A DNA stretch of 32,000 nucleotides from contig JBARXJ010000061.1 of the NCBI GenBank assembly GCA_049647265.1, forward strand, positions 28,750-60,749. Reading direction: 5' to 3'. Position numbers and translations under genes: made by a program. The notes under the pieces are model-generated. The model worked only from the letters and a program-made list of their open reading frames with translations, made no database searches and was not told the DNA's origin. The stretch is from Microcoleaceae cyanobacterium. GTDB taxonomy: Bacteria; Cyanobacteriota; Cyanobacteriia; Cyanobacteriales; Microcoleaceae. Shown piece after piece: positions 3,838-31,804 of the stretch (position 1 is its first letter; each line of letters opens with the position of its first letter).

Positions 3838-6800
3838 ATGACTGTTATTAATATTCGCGAACTCAATACCACCGAAACAGGATTTGCAGCCGAACTCTCT
3901 TTTGATGGACATACTCGTATTCCTATTAAAATTGACGACCCTTTTAACGCCAAAGAAGAACGTCGGTTAGAGTGGTATTTTGAAGGATGGTTACAACATC
4001 CCATGCTGGAAACTCACAAGGCAGAAGCTGCTGCAAATAGCGTTAAAACCTATGGTGAAAAACTATTTGAACAAGTCTTTAATAATCGCCAAGCTATACG
4101 AGAATATGAGAAAATAAAGTCTAAACTGAGTCAGGTTCAGATCGAAATTGAGAACCGTAACCCTGAGTTTCAAGCGTTGCATTGGGAAGCGATCAAAGAT
4201 CCAGAACTGCCGAGACCATTAGCGGTAGACTGTATAATGTTGCGGAAATATTGCGAACTTGCCCCGATATCTGCGGCGGTTGAATCTTTTCCCTATATTA
4301 ATGTATTGGTGGTGGTTGCCCGTCCGGATGAAGACAAAGATGTCAGTTATCGAACCATTTCTCGACCCTTAATTGAAGTAATTGAAACCAGTCATTTACC
4401 CGTTAATGTCGAGTTATTGCGTCCGGGAACTTATCAAGCCCTGTCGAAACATTTGGAAGAAAAAGGGGCAGGATATTATCACATTCTTCATTTTGACGGA
4501 CACGGGGCGTTAATGGACTATCAACAGGTTCAACAACCCAATAAACCCCAACGATATTATTATAAAGGACGCTACGGACGCAGCGATATTGAGGAATTTG
4601 AGGGGGTAAAAGCGTTTCTCTGTTTTGAACAAGAAGAAGCAGGCAAAGTAGACTTAGTGGAAGCCACGGAATTTGCTAACTTACTCACTGGAAAAAGTAT
4701 TCCGGTTTGTTTACTCAATGCTTGTCAGTCGGGGAAACAAATAGACAACGTAGAAGACTACCGCGAAACCAGTTTAGGCAGTCGGTTGATGGCGGCAGGA
4801 ATGCAGATGGTGGTGGCAATGGGATATAGTGTGACGGTGTCGGCAGCCCAGAAAATGATGCAACAATTGTATCAGCATTTATTAACCGGAAAAGAAATTA
4901 CAGAAGCCATTCGTTTAGGACGACTCGAACTCTACAATGATAAGGAACGTCAGGCTTATTTTAATCAAACCATTGAATTAGAAGACTGGCTATTGCCTGT
5001 TGTTTATTTCAACCAAACTGTTAATTTTAACTTACGACCATTTACCCCAGAAGAAGAAGAAAAATATTGGGAAAAACAGGGCAGTCAATACCATTTTTCG
5101 TTGCCAGAATATGGTTTTGTCGGTCGAGATTTGGAAATTCTTAAAATTGAAAAAGCTTTACTACGCCACAATATTTTATTATTACGGGGGATGGGTGGAA
5201 CCGGGAAAACCACCTTATTAAATTATTTACGGGAATGGTGGCAAACTACCCATTTTGCCGAAAACGTGTTTTATTTTGGCTATGACATCAAAGCCTATAC
5301 AGTTAATCAGATTTTACATGAAATCGGTCAACAGGTTTATGACAGATTTGAACAGGCAAAATTTCAAGCCATGAACCCTAACGCCCAGATGCCGAAATTA
5401 GTTCAGAAGCTAAAAACAGAATCCCATATTTTAATATTAGATAACTTAGAATCTGTTACCGGGCAAGAATTGGCAATTCAGAATACCTTATCCGCCGACG
5501 AACAACAAAAACTGAAAGACTTTCTTAACCGCTTAGTTGGGGGAAAAACCAGAATTGTATTAGGATCTCGCAGTGGGGAAGACTGGCTACGAAATGACAC
5601 CTTTAGAACCAATCTTTATCCCCTGCAAGGGTTAGACACACAAGCCCGTTCTCTGCTGGCTGAACGCATTCTTAACCGTCATGCTGCGGGGAAAGTTGAA
5701 GTTATTAAAGCAGACGATAACTTTAAACGGTTAATCAAACTATTGGCGGGGTATCCGTTAGCAATGGAAGTGGTACTCGCCAACCTGAAAAGACAATCTC
5801 CATCAGAGATTTTAACCGCATTGCAAGCCGCCGATATTAATTTAGATGAGGACAGTGAAGACAAGACAAAAAGTATTCTAAAATGTGTAGAATATTCCCA
5901 TAGTAATCTCTCGCCCACAGCCCAGAAATTGTTATTATGTTTAGCCCCATTTAGTGGGTTCATAGTTCGTTCTGCAATTCCAGAGTATGTCAAACAACTC
6001 AAAGAATTAGAACCATTTCAGGATTATGAATTTGATCAGTTTGATGATGCCATTCAAGAAGCGATAAACTGGGGATTACTATCTGTCCGGTTTGAAGAGA
6101 ATCCTCATCTACTTAACATTCAACCAGTATTTCCTTACTTCCTCAAAACAAAATTAAACGCATTAAATGCAGCCACCTATAAGGTATTACAAAAAGGCTT
6201 TAAACGTCACTATCAAGGGTTAGCAGGTGATTATCAACAATTAATGAAATCAAAAGAAGCGGACAAACGACAGATCGGCATCTTCTTGTGTCGTTTAGAA
6301 TACGAAAACCTCTACAATGCCCTAGAAATTAGTTTACAGCAACAAGATTCCGTTTCGATTGTCTATTGCTTGAGTATCTATCTTGATTTAACTGAAGATG
6401 TTCAAACCCATCTAAAGTTATTAGAATGGGTAATTGAAGCCCAAACTGCCTATCCAGATGAGATGCGTACAGGTGAAATAGGCTTAGATCTTATCCAGAT
6501 CCTTGGGTTATTGGCAACCTGTTATTTAAAAAATCAAAATTACCGAAAAGCTAAGCAATTTTACAATAAGGTAATTGATCTAACCCAACTACTTGAGGGT
6601 GTATCTGAAGAACAAAAACAGTTTACAATTGCCTGCACTTACCATTATTTGGGAAGAATTGCTTTTGAACAACGACAATGGCAGCACAGCCAACGCTACT
6701 GCAAAGACGCTCTCAATATCTTTATTAAATACGATAATCAATCTCAACAAGCTTCTATTCACCATACTTTAGGAAGAGTTGCTGAAGAACAACGACAGTG

Positions 6801-7722
6801 GCAGACAGCTCAAACATACTACCAAAAAGCCCTTGATATATACATCAAATACAGTGATCGCTTATCACAAGCCTTTAACTATTATCACCTGGGAAGGGTA
6901 GCAGAAGAACAACGACACTGGCAAGCGGCTCAAACATACTACCAAAAATCTCTTGATATTAAGATCGAATACGGCGATCGCCACTCTCAAGCCTCTAGCT
7001 ACCACCAATTAGGAATGCTTGCCCAACAACAACGGCAATGGCAAGATGCTAAAACCTACTACCAACAAGCCCTTGATATCAAAATTGAATACGGCGATCG
7101 CCCCTCTCAAGCTTTAACTTACAATAATTTGGGAATGCTTGCCCAACAACAACAACAATGGCAAATTGCTAAAACTTACTACCAACAAGCAATTGATATC
7201 TACATTGAATATGGCGATCGCTACTCTCAAGCTTTAACTTGCCACAACTTGGGGATGGTTGCCCAAGCACAACGACAGTGGCAAGATGCTAAAACCTACT
7301 ACCAACAAGCTCTCAATATCAAAATTGAATACGGCGATCGCTACTCTCAAGCCTATACCTACCATCAATTAGGAAGGGTTGCCGAGGAACAACGACAATG
7401 GCAAATTGCCCAAACTTACTACCAACAAGCCCTTGATATCTATATTGAATATAGCGATCGCCACTCTCAAGCTTTCACCTATGGGCAATTGGGTTTATTG
7501 GCAGAAGCACAGGAAGACTGGGAAACAGCAAAAACCAATTCGTTGCAAGCGTTAGAGATTTTTGCTGAGTTTGAGGATCAGCATTATCTAGATATGACTC
7601 TCAGAAACTTGGCTCGACTTTATCACACCACTGAGGATGAGAGTCTGTTAACCTCGGTTGCCTCTATATTTGGTGTTGAGGTTGAGGAGGTGCAGCGTAG
7701 GTTTGAGGAGTTACGGGAGTGA
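3838..7722 (+). CDS. CHAT (caspase-like protease) - NB-ARC/STAND P-loop NTPase - TPR repeat protein
   Basis: 1294-aa ORF. The CHAT dyad contexts are HILHFDGHG (His222) and LLNACQSG (Cys296). NTPase motifs are Walker A GMGGTGKTT (aa 451-459), Walker B ILILDN (Asp535), LGSRS, and LLAGYPLAMEV (GLPLA-type motif of NB-ARC). The C-terminal ~400 aa consist of 40-aa TPR-like units. Confidence 0.9.
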   Translation: MTVINIRELNTTETGFAAELSFDGHTRIPIKIDDPFNAKEERRLEWYFEGWLQHPMLETHKAEAAANSVKTYGEKLFEQVFNNRQAIREYEKIKSKLSQVQIEIENRNPEFQALHWEAIKDPELPRPLAVDCIMLRKYCELAPISAAVESFPYINVLVVVARPDEDKDVSYRTISRPLIEVIETSHLPVNVELLRPGTYQALSKHLEEKGAGYYHILHFDGHGALMDYQQVQQPNKPQRYYYKGRYGRSDIEEFEGVKAFLCFEQEEAGKVDLVEATEFANLLTGKSIPVCLLNACQSGKQIDNVEDYRETSLGSRLMAAGMQMVVAMGYSVTVSAAQKMMQQLYQHLLTGKEITEAIRLGRLELYNDKERQAYFNQTIELEDWLLPVVYFNQTVNFNLRPFTPEEEEKYWEKQGSQYHFSLPEYGFVGRDLEILKIEKALLRHNILLLRGMGGTGKTTLLNYLREWWQTTHFAENVFYFGYDIKAYTVNQILHEIGQQVYDRFEQAKFQAMNPNAQMPKLVQKLKTESHILILDNLESVTGQELAIQNTLSADEQQKLKDFLNRLVGGKTRIVLGSRSGEDWLRNDTFRTNLYPLQGLDTQARSLLAERILNRHAAGKVEVIKADDNFKRLIKLLAGYPLAMEVVLANLKRQSPSEILTALQAADINLDEDSEDKTKSILKCVEYSHSNLSPTAQKLLLCLAPFSGFIVRSAIPEYVKQLKELEPFQDYEFDQFDDAIQEAINWGLLSVRFEENPHLLNIQPVFPYFLKTKLNALNAATYKVLQKGFKRHYQGLAGDYQQLMKSKEADKRQIGIFLCRLEYENLYNALEISLQQQDSVSIVYCLSIYLDLTEDVQTHLKLLEWVIEAQTAYPDEMRTGEIGLDLIQILGLLATCYLKNQNYRKAKQFYNKVIDLTQLLEGVSEEQKQFTIACTYHYLGRIAFEQRQWQHSQRYCKDALNIFIKYDNQSQQASIHHTLGRVAEEQRQWQTAQTYYQKALDIYIKYSDRLSQAFNYYHLGRVAEEQRHWQAAQTYYQKSLDIKIEYGDRHSQASSYHQLGMLAQQQRQWQDAKTYYQQALDIKIEYGDRPSQALTYNNLGMLAQQQQQWQIAKTYYQQAIDIYIEYGDRYSQALTCHNLGMVAQAQRQWQDAKTYYQQALNIKIEYGDRYSQAYTYHQLGRVAEEQRQWQIAQTYYQQALDIYIEYSDRHSQAFTYGQLGLLAEAQEDWETAKTNSLQALEIFAEFEDQHYLDMTLRNLARLYHTTEDESLLTSVASIFGVEVEEVQRRFEELRE
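6661..7560 (+). repeat. Tandem 120-bp (40-codon) TPR-unit repeat, about 7.5 copies, inside the CHAT-STAND gene
   Basis: gaacaacgacaRtggca recurs at 6667, 6787, 6907, 7027, 7147, 7267 and 7387, with a degenerate copy at 7507. The phase is exactly 120 nt. GCGATCGC occurs at 6974, 7094, 7214, 7334 and 7454. Confidence 0.9.
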
Positions 7723-27615: not shown

Positions 27616-29355
27616 ATGAATGCAGTTGAAATCGAAGAAGCCGTTTCCCAACTAGCGCAATCCCCTTTTGACCCAGAAGAATTTCCCTTTGCCTTCCTCG
27701 AAGCCTTCGGCAATAAGTCAACCACCATTAAACGGCTTAAAAGTAAACGCAGTAACTCAACAAATAAATCAGACCTCGGTGGTGTACTCCAGCGTCATAA
27801 TATCCATATCAAGGTTTGCCCGGAAGGCGAAGTAACGGCTACTCTCACAGCATTACGAGAAAGCCCTGCTACGACGAAACATAAAGCTAAGTTTATCCTC
27901 GCGACTGATGGCAAAACCTTAGAAGCAGAAAATATTACTGACGGGGAGACCATTGCCTGCGACTATCCCAACGTTGCTGACCACTTCGGATTTTTCCTAA
28001 TGCTGGCGGGCATTACAACCGTTAAACAGATTCGGGAAAATGCTTTTGATATTAAAGCCACGGGTCGCCTCAACCGCCTCTACATCGAACTACTCAAGGA
28101 AAATCCTGACTGGGACACAGCAGCACGTCGGGAGGAAATGAACCACTTTATGGCGCGGTTAATCTTCTGTTTCTTTGCTGAAGATACAAATATTTTCCAT
28201 AGTAATAACCTCTTCACAGACACTATTGCACAGATGAGTGCGAAGGATTCCTCGAATACCCACGAGGTGCTGTCAGAGCTGTTTAGAGCCATGTGTACGC
28301 CGCAAAAAGAGCGCGTAGGGTGGGGGATTCGTAATTGGGCTAATTGCTTTCCTTATGTGAATGGGGGGCTGTTTAACCCTCATCCTCTAACTCCTTCTCC
28401 CAAGCCAGAAGAAGAGCTATTTCACCCTCATCCCCTAACCCCTTCTCCCAAGCCAGGAAAAGGAGGACAAAGTTCGGCTCCCCTCTCCTCTTCTGGGAGA
28501 GCGGGTGGGGGTGAGGGCACATACTGGGAAATCTCTCCTGCCCTTAAAAAGAAAATGACTGAGGTTGCCCGTCAATTTCGTAAAGAACCAACTCCTAGTG
28601 AAAAAATCCTCTGGCAAGCCTTGCGCGGACGCAAACTAGAAGGACGAAAGTTCAGACGACAACAGCCGATAGGTGTTTTCATTGTTGACTTCTTTTGTGC
28701 AGCCGAGCGGGTGATTGTGGAAGTAGATGGAGGCGTACATAACTCACAGCAACAAGCAGACCAACAACGGCAGGAGTTGCTGGAGTCCTTGGGCCTGAGA
28801 GTGGTTCGTGTCAGCAGTGAGTTGGTCGAAAGAAATTTAGATGAAGCATTGGCTATCGTGCAACAAGCGTTTAGCCCTCATCCCCTAACCCCTTCTTCCA
28901 AGCCAGGAGAAGGGGAACAAGATCTGGTTTTTCCTAATTCTCTAACTTCTTCTCCCAAGCCAGGAGAAGGAGGACAAAGTTCGGCTCCCCTCTCTTCCTC
29001 TGGGAGAGGGGCTGGGGGTGAGGGTTTTCAATCTGGAAAAGGGGAACAAGATCCGGCTCCCCTGTCCTCTTCTGAGAGAGAAGCGGGAGATGAGGGCATA
29101 GCAGTACCCCGTTTTAGTAAAATTGCCCGCTCTTATTTGCTGCACGTTGGCAGTCTTGACTGGAAGCAGATCAATCCCGATATCTTTGGCTCGATGATTC
29201 AGGCAGTGGCGGATGAGGAGGAACGAGGGGCGCTGGGAATGCACTATACCAGTGTACCGAATATCCTCAAAGTATTAAATCCGCTATTTTTGGATGATTT
29301 GCGTTGGCGAAGCCTCTCACGAGTGAGAATCGCAACTGAAAACCGCAGAAAATAA
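27616..29355 (+). CDS. MmeI-family type IIL restriction-modification enzyme, N-terminal (nuclease-like/helical) part carrying an in-frame DUF559 insertion; likely a fragment of a disrupted gene
   Basis: It is colinear with MmeI as I remember it: MARLIFCFFAEDTNIF, FPYVNGGLF, SLDWKQINPDIFGSMIQ, GMHYTSVPNILKVLNPLFLDDL. 240 extra codons are inserted after FPYVNGGLFN. The frame ends at TAA 29353-29355, just before the conserved region continues in another frame. Confidence 0.8.
   Translation: MNAVEIEEAVSQLAQSPFDPEEFPFAFLEAFGNKSTTIKRLKSKRSNSTNKSDLGGVLQRHNIHIKVCPEGEVTATLTALRESPATTKHKAKFILATDGKTLEAENITDGETIACDYPNVADHFGFFLMLAGITTVKQIRENAFDIKATGRLNRLYIELLKENPDWDTAARREEMNHFMARLIFCFFAEDTNIFHSNNLFTDTIAQMSAKDSSNTHEVLSELFRAMCTPQKERVGWGIRNWANCFPYVNGGLFNPHPLTPSPKPEEELFHPHPLTPSPKPGKGGQSSAPLSSSGRAGGGEGTYWEISPALKKKMTEVARQFRKEPTPSEKILWQALRGRKLEGRKFRRQQPIGVFIVDFFCAAERVIVEVDGGVHNSQQQADQQRQELLESLGLRVVRVSSELVERNLDEALAIVQQAFSPHPLTPSSKPGEGEQDLVFPNSLTSSPKPGEGGQSSAPLSSSGRGAGGEGFQSGKGEQDPAPLSSSEREAGDEGIAVPRFSKIARSYLLHVGSLDWKQINPDIFGSMIQAVADEEERGALGMHYTSVPNILKVLNPLFLDDLRWRSLSRVRIATENRRK
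28377..28518. repeat. Left block of palindromic GC-rich repeat units (one partial and one full ~95-nt unit)
   Basis: The block reads ccctcatcc(c)ctaac(c)ccttctcccaagccag... The full unit at 28424-28518 ends in ctgggagagcgggtgggggtgaggg, an imperfect reverse complement of its own 5' arm. Confidence 0.8.
28873..29096. repeat. Right block of palindromic GC-rich repeats: one unit nested inside another
   Basis: The outer unit has arms at 28875-28924 and 29054-29096, interrupted by a complete inner unit (28925-29038). aaggggaacaagatc is duplicated at 28910-28924 and 29039-29053. Confidence 0.75.
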
Positions 29356-29368
29356 TAGCCGCAAGTTA

Positions 29369-31165
29369 TTGAATTTACGGTCTCGAATTGCGCGAATTCG
29401 GGTGTTTGACCCCGCTTGTGGATCGGGTAATTTCCTGGTCATTGCTTACAAAGAAATGCGCTCAATAGAGGCAGAAATTAATCGTCGTCGAGGAGAAGAA
29501 AATCGGAAGTCAGAGATTCCTTTAACCAATTTTCGCGGGATTGAAATTCGCCATTTTGCCGCAGAGATTGCCCGGTTAGCGTTGATTATTGCGGAGTATC
29601 AATGTGATGTATTGTATCTGGGACAACTTACAGCTTGCGAACTGTTTCTGCCACTGAAGCAGGATAACTGGATTACCTGTGGCAATGCCTTACGGTTAGA
29701 TTGGTTAAGTCTTTGTCCGCCAACGGGAACCGATGTAAAGGTGCAAGGTGAGGATTTATTAAGTTTGTTGCATGATGAAGCGGAGATTGAGTTTGAGAAT
29801 GAAGGAGGGGAAACTTATATTTGTGGAAATCCGCCCTATTTGGGTTCTACTTGGCAATCGAAAGAACAAAAAGACGATCTCAAACAAATCTTTAGTGGAC
29901 GAACTAAAACCTGGAAATCCCTCGATTATGTGGCAGGTTGGTTTATGAAAGCGGCAGACTACGGAACACAGACAAAATCTGCGGCGGCGTTTGTATCTAC
30001 TAATTCAATCTGTCAGGGGCAACAAGTGCCAATTTTATGGCCGTTAATTTTTAAGACAAAACACGAAATTGCTTTTGCTCACACTTCTTTTAAATGGGCA
30101 AATTTAGCCAGTCATAATGCAGGGGTAACGGTAGTTATTGTCGGAATTTCTAATCATGCTGAAAAAATTCGACAGTTATTTTCTATTGATGAAAACGGTG
30201 AGACAGTTGTAAAAGAAGCTGAGAATATCAATGCTTATTTGGTGGCTGGGTCTAACGTTATTGTTGAAAAAGCGATGAAGCCGTTAGATGGCTTCTTTGA
30301 AATGAGTTTTGGTAACAAACCTGTTGATGGTGGAGGTCTTCTGCTCACATCAGATGAAACAAGGCTACTTCGCAAACAAAATGAGACCGCTTATCAAGAC
30401 TTCGTTCGACCTTACCTGGGATCGGAAGAGTTGATTAATGGAAAATTACGTTTTTCCCTTTGGATTTCTGACGATGAAGCTAAAGAAGCGATAAAGTATT
30501 CTTTTATTACCGAGCGACTAGAAAAAGTGCGAAAGATGCGAGATTCCAGTAATAAAAAACAAACGAGAGAGGCTGCATCTTGGCCACATCGCTTTGGTGA
30601 AATTCGGCATCAACCCAGTAAATATTCAATTGTTGTTCCTCGTGTTAGCTCTGAAAACCGAGAATTTCTTCCTGTAGGTCTTGTTCAAGCTGGGACAATT
30701 ATCGGCGATCGCAACTTCGCCCTCTACGATGCCCCTCTGTGGAATATGGCACTCATTGCCTCCCGCCTCCATTGGGTCTGGATCGGCACTGTTTGCGTCC
30801 GGCTTGAAATGCGTTTCTCCTACTCCAATACCCTTGGCTGGAACACTTTCCCCGTCCCCACCCTCACCGAGCAAAACAAAACAGACCTTACCCGTTGTGC
30901 TGAGGATATTCTGCTAGCAAGAGAGCATTATTTCCCTGCCACTATTGCCGATATGTACGATCCAAAACGTATGGATAACGAGTTTCCTTTAGTTCGAGAA
31001 GCACACGATCGCAACGACGAAATCTTAGAGCGAATTTATATCGGTCGCCGCTTCAAAAACGATACGGAGCGATTGGAGAAACTGTTTGAATTGTATACTA
31101 AAATGACCAGACAAATAGCGTCATCGAAAAAGTCTGCAAAAAGGAAAACTCAAGGAGGCAAATAA
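29369..31165 (+). CDS. MmeI-family N6-adenine DNA methyltransferase / target-recognition part (C-terminal two thirds of the split R-M gene)
   Basis: 598-aa ORF with no ATG (TTG at 29369). Motif I is VFDPACGSGNFLV and motif IV is GNPPYLG (NPPY at 29828-29839). TRD and C-terminal blocks match MmeI blocks from memory: FGNKPVDGGGLLLT, SSENREFLPVGLV, YSNTLGWNTFPVP, DMYDPKRM. The frame is open upstream to 29327 and there encodes NNSRKLLNL, matching the MmeI region before motif I. Confidence 0.85.
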   Translation: MNLRSRIARIRVFDPACGSGNFLVIAYKEMRSIEAEINRRRGEENRKSEIPLTNFRGIEIRHFAAEIARLALIIAEYQCDVLYLGQLTACELFLPLKQDNWITCGNALRLDWLSLCPPTGTDVKVQGEDLLSLLHDEAEIEFENEGGETYICGNPPYLGSTWQSKEQKDDLKQIFSGRTKTWKSLDYVAGWFMKAADYGTQTKSAAAFVSTNSICQGQQVPILWPLIFKTKHEIAFAHTSFKWANLASHNAGVTVVIVGISNHAEKIRQLFSIDENGETVVKEAENINAYLVAGSNVIVEKAMKPLDGFFEMSFGNKPVDGGGLLLTSDETRLLRKQNETAYQDFVRPYLGSEELINGKLRFSLWISDDEAKEAIKYSFITERLEKVRKMRDSSNKKQTREAASWPHRFGEIRHQPSKYSIVVPRVSSENREFLPVGLVQAGTIIGDRNFALYDAPLWNMALIASRLHWVWIGTVCVRLEMRFSYSNTLGWNTFPVPTLTEQNKTDLTRCAEDILLAREHYFPATIADMYDPKRMDNEFPLVREAHDRNDEILERIYIGRRFKNDTERLEKLFELYTKMTRQIASSKKSAKRKTQGGK

Positions 31166-31494
31166 TGAATATCGCAATCGAGCTTCCGATGAATAAAATT
31201 ACTGAATTTTGTCAAAAATGGCAAGTAATAGAATTTGCCCTATTTGGCTCAGTTTTGCGCGATGACTTCTGCCCTGACAGCGATATTGATGTGATGGTGC
31301 AATTTCATCGAGATGCTCACCCCAGATTTAGTACTCTAGATCGGATGGAAACAGAACTCAAAATCATATTTGATCGCGATGTTGACCTAATTACCCGTCA
31401 GGGTATTGAGACCAGCCGCAATTACCTACGCCGTCACGAAATTTTATCTTCTGCCCAGGTAATTTATGCAACGAGATCTACAATTTCTGCTTGA
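31165..31494 (+). CDS. mntA: nucleotidyltransferase family protein (MNT/MntA-type antitoxin)
   Basis: 109 aa. LFGSVLRDDFCPDSDIDVMV is the GSxxRGx(n)SDxD minimal nucleotidyltransferase motif. Its ATG overlaps the upstream stop (TAATG at 31163-31167). Confidence 0.85.
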   Translation: MNIAIELPMNKITEFCQKWQVIEFALFGSVLRDDFCPDSDIDVMVQFHRDAHPRFSTLDRMETELKIIFDRDVDLITRQGIETSRNYLRRHEILSSAQVIYATRSTISA

Positions 31495-31804
31495 TATGCT
31501 GCAATCGGCAGAACTAATTATCACCTACACAAATCAGTGCGAAAAAGATGAGTTTATTAACAATATTCAGCTTCAAGATGCAGTTATTCGGAGACTTTTG
31601 GTAATTGCTGAAGCCGCTAGACGAGTTTCAGAAACGACTCAACAAACTTTACCAAATATTTCTTGGCAAGAAATCAACGGCATGAGAAATCGATTAGTTC
31701 ACGAATATGATGATGTTAATCTTAATATCGTTTGGGATGTGGTTCAGTTCGAGATACCGCAGTTGATTGAAACTTTAAAGGTTAAGATTCCACCTGAACC
31801 TTAA
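31466..31804 (+). CDS. hepT: HepT-like (DUF86) HEPN ribonuclease toxin
   Basis: 112 aa. MRNRLVHEYDDVNLNIVW carries the HEPN Rx4H motif. It overlaps the MNT gene by 29 nt, the typical MNT-HEPN arrangement. Confidence 0.85.
   Translation: MQRDLQFLLDMLQSAELIITYTNQCEKDEFINNIQLQDAVIRRLLVIAEAARRVSETTQQTLPNISWQEINGMRNRLVHEYDDVNLNIVWDVVQFEIPQLIETLKVKIPPEP

Follow-up and report, generated by a model that had tools for sequence, protein, structure and literature searches.

A putative translated, non-splicing insertion cassette with a DUF559 (Vsr-like) nuclease core between hairpin repeats in a methyltransferase gene of a Microcoleaceae cyanobacterium

Introduction

The locus described here raises the question of how a gene for a DNA methyltransferase can hold 240 additional codons, made up of a nuclease domain between palindromic repeats, that remain open and in phase with the gene on both sides. 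It lies in a 32,000-nt stretch of a Microcoleaceae cyanobacterium (GenBank assembly GCA_049647265.1, contig JBARXJ010000061.1, positions 28,750 to 60,749 of the forward strand), which was analyzed as a whole and is called the window below. An earlier sequence-only reading had offered three explanations: a recent insertion that preserved the frame by luck, a family of translatable repeats tolerated inside genes, or the acquisition of a second nuclease domain by a restriction-modification enzyme. Comparison with related sequences indicates that the insert is one copy of a translated insertion-cassette family, in which a Vsr-like (DUF559) open reading frame (ORF) is placed between GC-rich nested-hairpin units, and that the cassette occupies a host-protein loop and is read through in phase with the host. 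We regard it, with a probability of about one half, as a selfish, translated, non-splicing element related to homing endonucleases whose repeats encode flexible linkers.

The in-frame insert and its parts

The insert occupies window positions 28378-29097 (+) and comprises 720 nt, or 240 stop-free codons in phase with the host gene on both sides. GC-rich hairpin repeats are followed by an intact 117-codon DUF559 (Vsr-like) core and by further repeats. All of this lies within ORF1, which runs from ATG 27616 (MNAVEIEE...) to 29355 and matches an NCBI protein (P0075) from a Microcoleaceae metagenome-assembled genome (MAG). The features of the locus are as follows.

27616-28377 (+): 5' part of the host gene, with MmeI_N-like and helical-spacer domains, ending ...FPYVNGGLFN
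28378-28521 (+): left flank with three repeat arms, read as PHPLTPSPKP...APLSSSGRAGGGEGT
28378-28417, 28426-28465, 28478-28517 (+): the left-flank arms by repeat family, degenerate A, A and B, respectively
28522-28872 (+): predicted DUF559 (Vsr-like PD-(D/E)XK) nuclease core, 117 codons, YWEISPALKKKMTEVARQ...AIVQQAF
28873-29097 (+): right flank with four repeat arms, read as SPHPLTPSSKPGEGEQ...SSSEREAGDEG
28876-28915, 28933-28972, 28985-29024, 29057-29096 (+): the right-flank arms by repeat family, A, degenerate A, B and degenerate B, respectively
29098-29304 (+): host gene resumed in frame, start of the methyltransferase domain, IAVPRFSKIARSY...LDDLR, colinear with homologues and with MmeI 5HR4 residues 267-335
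29305-29329 (+): 25-nt frameshifting insertion, TGGCGAAGCCTCTCACGAGTGAGAA, containing the palindrome TCTCAC-GA-GTGAGA
29330-31165 (+): remainder of the host gene in the +1 frame (called ORF 29369-31165), with MmeI_Mtase, MmeI_TRD and MmeI_C

Homologues about 83% identical to the host read ...FPYVNGGLFSG(S/C)VEVPRFSKIARSY... with no intervening segment, so that the window carries 240 extra codons between LFN and IAVPRF; the cassette-free allele sequence is ...NGGLFSGSVEVPRF.... The outer termini of the insert are inverted (CCCTCA(T/C)CCCC ... GGGG(G/T)TGAGGG), and four host codons have been exchanged for two. On the MmeI structure 5HR4 the insertion point falls in the loop after F262, at the boundary between the helical spacer and the methyltransferase domain. 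The Logan assembly contig of the window locus (L001) begins at window position 29013, within the right flank.

Both flanks are stop-free in the host frame only. When they were mononucleotide-shuffled 1.2% remained open, and random sequence of the window's composition did so in 0.04% of cases, in agreement with the sequence-only reading, which had judged open in-phase flanks to be unlikely by chance. That reading had also given the length, phase and openness of the insert correctly, with coordinates (28377-29096) one base off, and had placed an intact DUF559 domain in its middle, at 118 instead of 117 codons.

Occurrence of the cassette at the same site in relatives

The same cassette was found at the same site and in frame in at least 10 other cyanobacterial contigs; the genome-contig search, which used a single insert protein and narrow peptide patterns, yielded 12 loci. 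Uninterrupted frames with the cassette are present in Elainellaceae (L003, 1146 codons), in Coleofasciculus (L005, 1123 codons) and in two metagenome loci (L021, 1153 codons; L022, 1241 codons), and a third metagenome locus (L023) is likewise filled. Further filled alleles came from Coleofasciculus (L007), Spirulinaceae (L008), Leptolyngbyaceae (L006), the nearest relative of the window (L002 together with L012) and Neosynechococcus (P0124), as well as from P0020, P0122, P0123 and P0125. The number of repeat arms varies among these lineages and the frame is retained.

In the set of the 120 closest host homologues, the site is pristine (reading SGSVE, SGGVE or similar) in 88 and holds the full cassette in two. 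An in-frame solo repeat stands there in four (P0005, P0008, P0036 and P0042), other short inserts that are not repeats in another four (P0006, P0029, P0035 and P0076), and 22 were unclassifiable by the pattern used. In the contig of P0005 (L018), which is 98% identical and syntenic to the filled Coleofasciculus contig L005, exactly 534 nt are missing between two B arms of 41 nt, and by comparison of the two sequences this is the product expected of recombination between flanking direct repeats. P0042 retains the original GLD residues and has a different junction, and is therefore a solo-unit insertion that arose independently in the same loop.

In a neighbour-joining tree of the host N-terminus the cassette-bearing genes branched in two places, and L003 was found beside one pristine and one solo-unit allele. 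Therefore, allele recombination or more than one gain is needed. The window copy itself is an old, inherited one, with an intact core and several decaying arms, and an unrelated insertion of 25 nt broke its host gene later.

The same comparison brought up another kind of small mobile repeat. L005 has at 4975-5075 an element of 102 nt that is bounded by TAGCAA...TTGCTA and has GTAGAGACGCGCCATGGCGCGTCTCTAC as its central palindrome; it is missing at about position 2773 of L018 and is thus polymorphic in presence between the 98% identical Coleofasciculus strains.

The nuclease core

The Pfam family DUF559 (PF04480) matched the insert with 110.9 bits against a cut-off of 20.6 (E=3.6e-32, model positions 2-106 of 109); in ORF1 the domain covers residues 313-417 (E=1.3e-31). 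Residues D104, E115, D117, H121 and D128 of the core (insert numbering) are unchanged across 81 relatives, and the last four are the composite E-D-x-H-D residues of EDxHD homing endonucleases. The sole relative of the core in a PDB sequence search was 3HRL (E=8.7e-19), a Neisseria protein without characterisation. AlphaFold2 modeled the core confidently, with a predicted local distance difference test score (pLDDT) of 82-96 over residues ~50-165. Foldseek placed 3HRL first (template modelling score, TM, 0.85) and the catalytic domain of I-Bth0305I (3R3P) second (TM 0.75-0.77, E ~1e-4), at a sequence identity of only 17-18% to the latter; the Vsr structures 1CW0 and 1VSR were listed at lower rank. 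Vsr, DUF559 and the homing endonuclease I-Bth0305I have been placed together before (Steczkiewicz et al., 2012). The core is thus a predicted nuclease of Vsr-like fold.

The ratio of nonsynonymous to synonymous divergence (dN/dS, Nei-Gojobori) of the core was 0.02-0.15 and mostly 0.03-0.06, which indicates an intact core under strong purifying selection. Its synonymous divergence compared with that of the host N-terminal part in the same pairs was 0.41 vs 0.29, 0.36 vs 0.23 and 0.66 vs 0.85, deeper pairs being saturated. The two are close, therefore suggesting that the cassette has long co-travelled with the host gene and that the nuclease was kept working.

No sign of a splicing element was detected. 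The Pfam scan of the insert gave DUF559 and MTES_1575 only, with no NUMOD-type DNA-binding region, and no Hint or intein domain at E<=0.01; the Rfam scan gave no intron or other RNA family, apart from a chance H19 match. The insert starts with PHPL and ends with GDEG, the next residue being Ile, and is without the nucleophiles or the His-Asn needed for splicing.

Two further ideas on the core were considered. The invariant M60 (insert numbering) suggested independent translation from an internal start, and this was set aside because the residues upstream of it (W-x-I-P-x-x-L-x-x-K) are also conserved as protein. A Vsr-type repair of T:G mismatches linked to 5-methylcytosine was rejected, since the identified host methyltransferases all belong to families known as N6-adenine enzymes.

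The hairpin repeat flanks

Two kinds of arm make up the flanks. Arm A is CCTCATCCCCTAACCCCTTCTCCC-loop-GGGAGAAGGGG and is read as PHPLTPSPKxGEG; arm B is CTCCCCTCTCCC-loop-GGGAGAGGGGCTGGGGGTGAGGG and is read as PLSxxGRGAGGEG. Every arm holds a hairpin of 10-11 bp, and the outer ends of an A+B unit are mutually complementary. Folded with RNA parameters, the left flank gave -57.8 kcal/mol (z=-5.8 vs shuffles) and the right flank -100.1 kcal/mol (z=-6.5), so the description of the flanks as GC-rich palindromes in the sequence-only reading was borne out. All 71 arms found lie on the strand of the cassette, in direct orientation. Several arms of the window (those at 28378, 28933 and 29057) are degenerate, and within the 32 kb the repeat unit is confined to the insert locus.

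The third codon positions of the core-proximal arm are 73-100% identical between lineages, compared with 45-62% for the core in the same pairs. Taken over 31 distinct arms, stem pairing reaches 91%; two pairs carry compensatory changes (U-A to C-G), and none of 500 shuffles attained the observed covariation score or the observed count of doubly changed cells. By these comparisons the flanks are kept as DNA hairpins, more strictly than neighbouring synonymous sites. At the protein level they are predicted to be disordered linkers rich in proline, serine and glycine (pLDDT 50-59, no secondary structure).

The unit is also dispersed. A 94-nt unit consensus was found at 58 places in 22 plasmids, mostly cyanobacterial and mostly in unannotated DNA, including 11 and 10 places in two plasmids of Pseudanabaena galeata CCNP1313. 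Solo units are present in frame within intact coding sequences (CDSs) of a DISARM methyltransferase and a 3'-5' exonuclease and in a PglX-like ORF (P0168), their translation being read from the intactness of the ORFs. Intergenic solo units stand beside host genes in L003, L005, L009 and L014. The unit is open in more than one frame and can be read, for example, as GRGAGGEG or GEGLGVRE. A protein-database search with the repeat-peptide consensus returned nine short hypothetical ORFs only, probably through composition filtering, and gave no survey of hosts.

At 9450-9800 of L003, downstream of the uninterrupted frame, there are two extra copies of the host 3' end (...RFKNDTERLEKLFELYTKMTS*) with solo hairpin units between them. 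This suggests repeat-mediated duplication or remnants of further alleles.

Cassettes in other genes

Close relatives of the cassette, with 55-75% identity and the same type of flank, were detected in several other genes. The cassette is fused in Type III Mod of L009 (uninterrupted 912-codon frame with Res downstream), L004 and P0121. Other fusions in single ORFs include Eco57I/TaqI_C and PglX-like methyltransferases, DUF1156 methyltransferases, the C-terminal end of YeeA-like proteins and a NACHT protein. In the cultured strain P. galeata CCNP1313, a complete plasmid carries the cassette in frame directly before motif I in an intact 1621-aa CDS, annotated between brxC and pglZ, for the BREX methyltransferase PglX. 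The cassette fusions are therefore not artefacts of MAG assembly. Free-standing copies were found between the HmaB and HmaC genes and after a NACHT gene. Phage copies of the cassette were not found in the search, and no PADLOC model matched it.

The wider metagenome sample comprised 80 loci with 37-70% identity. Most of these DUF559 ORFs are small and free-standing, usually co-oriented just 3' of conserved housekeeping genes, and their neighbours include IMPDH, CarB (twice, with the same neighbours) and molybdopterin oxidoreductases. Ten of the 80 are embedded in large frames: three YeeA-like, two DUF1156, one Type ISP, MetH (between the B12 cap and the B12-binding domain), PurL, a GlgB-like protein and a CCA-adding enzyme. 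Most of the ten, those in housekeeping genes included, have P/G-rich flanks of the 'PLTPxP..GEG' type.

Phylogenetic analysis of the cores (bootstrap neighbour-joining, 116-column alignment) put those of YeeA-like and Mod hosts in one clade, and a separation by host appeared in <2% of 300 bootstraps. The whole cassette must have moved at least once between unrelated genes; no number of transfers is claimed.

Some further arrangements were observed around these loci. In L050 and L071 a free-standing DUF559 ORF lies between carB and a gene for a class-II glutamine amidotransferase, in L071 directly after the carB stop codon and in the same frame, and in L030 it lies between the IMPDH gene and moeA. 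The 3' ends of housekeeping genes are thus conserved positions for such ORFs. Genes of the Uma2 family ('putative restriction endonuclease') adjoin defence methyltransferase genes bearing cassettes or units in four unrelated loci (L005 8725-9291, L009 4188-4793, L101 3903-4604 and L102 7006-7611). In L009, genes for XisH and XisI also stand between Mod and Res.

The host gene

The host gene has the complete MmeI series N-hel-Mtase-TRD-C (TRD, target recognition domain), its five Pfam domains being spread over two ORFs. MmeI_N (aa 1-161, E=6.5e-35) and MmeI_hel (173-253, E=3.8e-26) are both N-terminal of the insert, in line with the colinearity noted in the sequence-only reading; MmeI_Mtase (E=1.5e-116), MmeI_TRD (1.4e-82) and MmeI_C (6.2e-14) are in the second ORF, 29369-31165. 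The PADLOC model REase_MTase_IIG matches the remainder of the host with E=7e-200. The 5' part aligns to MmeI 5HR4 residues 104-262 and is about 83% identical to uninterrupted homologues.

The first ~100 residues of the host gave no alignment to MmeI 5HR4 by single sequence or profile (the profile aligned from residue 104 onwards), and phmmer of the N-terminus vs PDB gave no match. The stretch expected to match MmeI D70, E80 and K82 reads D53...H64-I-K66 in our own mapping of the residues, and K66 is unconserved among homologues; our view of the catalytic motif is based on this non-alignment and on the literature. A 'second set' of YeeA-like proteins without the PD-ExK motif and without endonuclease activity, with helicase and GIY-YIG-type neighbours, has been described (Morgan et al., 2009). 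Because its first ~100 residues are unalignable to MmeI, and genes for a DEAD helicase and a T5orf172 protein are found downstream, the host matches, on sequence grounds, a YeeA-like MmeI-family DNA methyltransferase and not a classical MmeI restriction enzyme. The sequence-only reading was thus right about the MmeI family, with all five domains present, and less so about the restriction-modification activity, for there is no alignable PD-ExK region; the DUF559 domain, which it had called a second nuclease domain, would be the first nuclease motif of the polypeptide. The window host resembles the YeeA-like branch of Morgan et al. (2009) in domain order, in the lack of an alignable PD-ExK region and in the downstream DEAD helicase and T5orf172 genes. 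It differs in the 240-codon cassette after the NGGLF motif, in the 25-nt split and in the toxin-antitoxin and DUF4258 genes before the helicase.

The sequence-only reading stopped at 29300 and missed the frameshift just beyond. The 25 extra bases at 29305-29329 shift the frame, and therefore ORF1 ends at 29355 and the host gene is split, with the methyltransferase, TRD and C-terminal domains in a second ORF in another frame. In the nearest relative, a Microcoleaceae MAG (contigs L002 and L012, 92-96% DNA identity), LDDLRSQLETAENNSRKLL is uninterrupted at the break site, and the 25-nt insertion is missing from the L012 gene (93-96% identical). It is single copy in the window; the 25-mer TGGCGAAGCCTCTCACGAGTGAGAA was also found in the Logan contig L001, which may derive from the same sample. 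The host gene in the window is probably inactive, through this frameshift, which is separate from the cassette. The insertion splits a short host palindrome (TTGCG|TCGCAA) and may have arisen as a tiny element, as a footprint or by a replication error.

Other differences among host alleles were seen. Between window 30272-30573 and L012 1337-1635 about 300 nt of the TRD have no nucleotide similarity, and the flanking gene is 93-96% identical, which looks like a swapped specificity module. Several host alleles have internal deletions or replacements in the methyltransferase/TRD region (L018 4264-4723 vs L005 7100-8190; the C-termini of P0020 and P0004); the gene family is highly conserved and spread horizontally, and many of its members seem to be in decay. 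Between the methyltransferase gene and the DEAD helicase and T5orf172 genes lie a toxin-antitoxin pair (nucleotidyltransferase/HepT) and a DUF4258 gene (window 31165-31804; L001 2969-6842), and L012 has the same toxin-antitoxin/DUF4258 arrangement. Elsewhere in the window, a 1294-codon ORF (3838-7722) contains at least six tandem copies of a 120-nt unit (6631-7530, 65-70% identity) and looks like a repeat protein.

Origin and persistence of the cassette

As a selfish, translated element, the cassette would fill the niche of inteins and homing endonuclease genes without splicing. It would borrow the transcription and translation of the host gene, and the host protein would tolerate it through the repeats, which may serve as flexible linkers in a surface loop. 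Where the host is a defence methyltransferase, selection for a working methyltransferase would enforce the frame. Spread and persistence may come from nuclease-stimulated recombination, by homing or gene conversion into cassette-free alleles or solo units, and the cassette may also be carried along by defence genes that are themselves horizontally mobile. The core would be deleted, and an in-frame solo unit left, when the flanking direct repeats recombine. It is conceivable, though we hold it only tentatively, that the cassettes form a distinct class of mobile element, an autonomous intein-like protein parasite that is never spliced and whose minimal homing nuclease, Vsr-like, is expressed only inside the host protein, as one of its domains. 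The hairpin units could then act as DNA in the role of recognition or recombination sites and homology arms for the nuclease and as protein in that of harmless linkers, and the solo units could be non-autonomous derivatives mobilised or converted by the same nuclease, as miniature inverted-repeat transposable elements, or MITEs, relate to their parent insertion sequences.

Several points weigh against this selfish-element reading. Nuclease activity, a target site and mobility of the cassette are assumed in it, and among the loci compared no near-identical cassettes were seen at different loci. The similar synonymous divergence of core and host points to inheritance that is mostly vertical or joint with the host gene. 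Neither a target-site duplication nor a clean terminal structure was recognised in the comparison of junctions between diverged alleles, a duplication being no longer readable because too much divergence has accumulated. A core of ~117 residues without the NUMOD-type modules of I-Bth0305I makes recognition of a long target hard to explain. Classical homing-endonuclease genes tend to decay once fixed, and selection that has stayed purifying over a long time would be equally in line with a benefit to the host. The L018 deletion, in a short-read Logan contig, could conceivably reflect collapse of the repeats in assembly; this does not touch the independent solo units of P0008 (JGI), P0036 (NCBI) and P0042 (JGI). 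Within the YeeA/Mod clade, the core tree gives no firm branching order. Finally, simple selfishness does not predict how strongly the close cyanobacterial relatives favour defence methyltransferases as hosts, for which the explanation offered is our inference: the bias may reflect the horizontal mobility of these genes, their tolerance of loop insertions and the need for the methyltransferase while the partner nuclease is active.

In a different explanation, a repeat-borne DUF559 nuclease was domesticated and now works as an effector or extra nuclease of a defence system, tethered in a sequence-specific DNA methyltransferase. Nearly all identifiable hosts among the close cyanobacterial relatives are defence-type DNA methyltransferases (YeeA-like, Type III Mod, PglX, DUF1156/HmaB and Type ISP), free-standing copies occur within Hma operons in the HmaB-HmaC gap, the purifying selection on the core matches that on the host over long co-divergence, and the YeeA-like host lacks the MmeI catalytic motif region. 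We nevertheless consider domestication unlikely. Of the closest host homologues 88 of 120 are cassette-free, and the solo-unit alleles show that loss is tolerated; the systems keep nucleases of their own (T5orf172 at the window locus, Res at the Type III locus); in-frame cassettes in MetH, PurL, the GlgB-like protein and the CCA-adding enzyme have no obvious nuclease role there; the DNA-level conservation and compensatory changes of the flanks would be unnecessary for mere linkers; and in the window the methyltransferase frame is broken while the core is still intact. The acquisition of a nuclease domain by the enzyme, as proposed in the sequence-only reading, accordingly fits the purifying selection and the enrichment in defence methyltransferases, but not the MetH, PurL and GlgB-like hosts or the many cassette-free homologues.

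That the hairpin units are instead mobile in trans, through some transposase or recombinase, with the DUF559 ORF as trapped cargo and the in-frame copies as survivors, seems rather improbable to us. Solo units do far outnumber cassettes, both between genes and inside other genes without DUF559, they are open in more than one reading frame, and P0042 provides an independent solo-unit insertion in the same loop with a different junction. Against this, unneeded cargo would not hold a dN/dS of ~0.04, similarly flanked DUF559 relatives recur in cyanobacteria, Chloroflexi and other phyla, which points to a lasting partnership and not to accidental capture, and no transposase adjoining the cassettes and no target-site duplication were found. 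A recent chance insertion, an intein or an intron is highly improbable, even though the insert, like an intein, is open and a multiple of three in length. Orthologous in-frame cassettes occur in many diverged lineages, with core synonymous divergence close to that of the host and saturated in deeper pairs, so the explanation by a recent insertion in frame by luck fails. An intein would need a Hint or intein Pfam domain and splicing residues in place of the Pro...Gly ends followed by Ile; for an intron there is no Rfam match, and an element spliced as RNA needs no open frame through flanks of variable length. The remaining proposal, a translatable repeat family tolerated within genes, holds well: the units are multi-copy and dispersed, both intergenic and in frame, and occur alone at the same site. 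The mobile nature of the insert is further favoured by the strong DUF559 match, the other copies of the repeat and the absence of the 240 residues from 88 of the 120 homologues.

Comparison with known systems

In full-text literature searches, which covered journals other than those on subscription, no account of cassettes of this type was met; a DUF559 gene is briefly noted as a possible EDxHD homing endonuclease in one paper on a cyanobacterial genome. The novelty lies in the combination of known kinds, in-frame palindromic elements and homing-type nucleases, and the cassette family is apparently widespread and undescribed.

Rickettsia palindromic elements (RPEs) are short dispersed palindromes that are in frame in unrelated genes, translated and tolerated by the host (PMC10969869, a review). 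The solo hairpin units resemble them and intragenic MITEs, being multi-copy, dispersed, palindromic and in frame in unrelated genes. However, RPEs carry no enzyme ORF, while here two units bracket a conserved nuclease gene translated within the host protein; there is also no relation in sequence or in taxa (here cyanobacteria and Chloroflexi), and defence methyltransferases are the hosts preferred here.

With I-Bth0305I and other EDxHD enzymes the core shares the Vsr-like catalytic fold and the composite E, D, H and D residues, and with homing endonuclease genes the cassette shares its place within conserved host genes and the presence or absence at a fixed site, in a niche also used by inteins (MetH, PurL, methyltransferases). 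I-Bth0305I has an extra DNA-binding region and resides in a group I intron. The cassette, in contrast, has no intron, intein or NUMOD region, stays in the protein and is flanked by hairpins, and homing is suggested only indirectly, by the pristine, filled and solo-unit alleles of one site. Unlike inteins, it has no Hint domain, no N-terminal Cys/Ser, no C-terminal His-Asn and no +1 Cys/Ser/Thr.

A gene for an enzyme flanked by a hairpin repeat that is also scattered as solo copies is likewise found in the repetitive extragenic palindrome (REP) and REP-associated tyrosine transposase (RAYT) systems, or REPtrons. By this analogy the cassette and the solo units may be an autonomous/non-autonomous pair. 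RAYTs are transposases of the HUH/Y1 type; they and the REPs that flank them in inverted orientation are extragenic. The enzyme of the cassette, in contrast, is a predicted PD-(D/E)XK nuclease, its units stand in direct orientation, and many of the copies lie within ORFs.

Significance

For the window itself the message is the smaller one, as the host gene is probably inactive through a separate frameshift. If the selfish-element reading is true, the family would be a widespread bacterial genetic parasite with a third way of living in an essential gene, by neither RNA nor protein splicing: it would bring its own flexible linkers and remain in the protein. It would explain many overlong methyltransferase annotations of the 'DUF559 domain-containing' kind in cyanobacteria and would provide a concrete candidate for the mover of a large family of GC-rich hairpin repeats. 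The insertion sites would form a natural catalogue of insertion-tolerant loops in methyltransferases of the MmeI-type, Type III, BREX and DISARM systems and in enzymes like MetH. It would also raise the question whether such cassettes give methyltransferases their nuclease domains, that is, whether they may contribute to the birth of fused restriction-modification enzymes.

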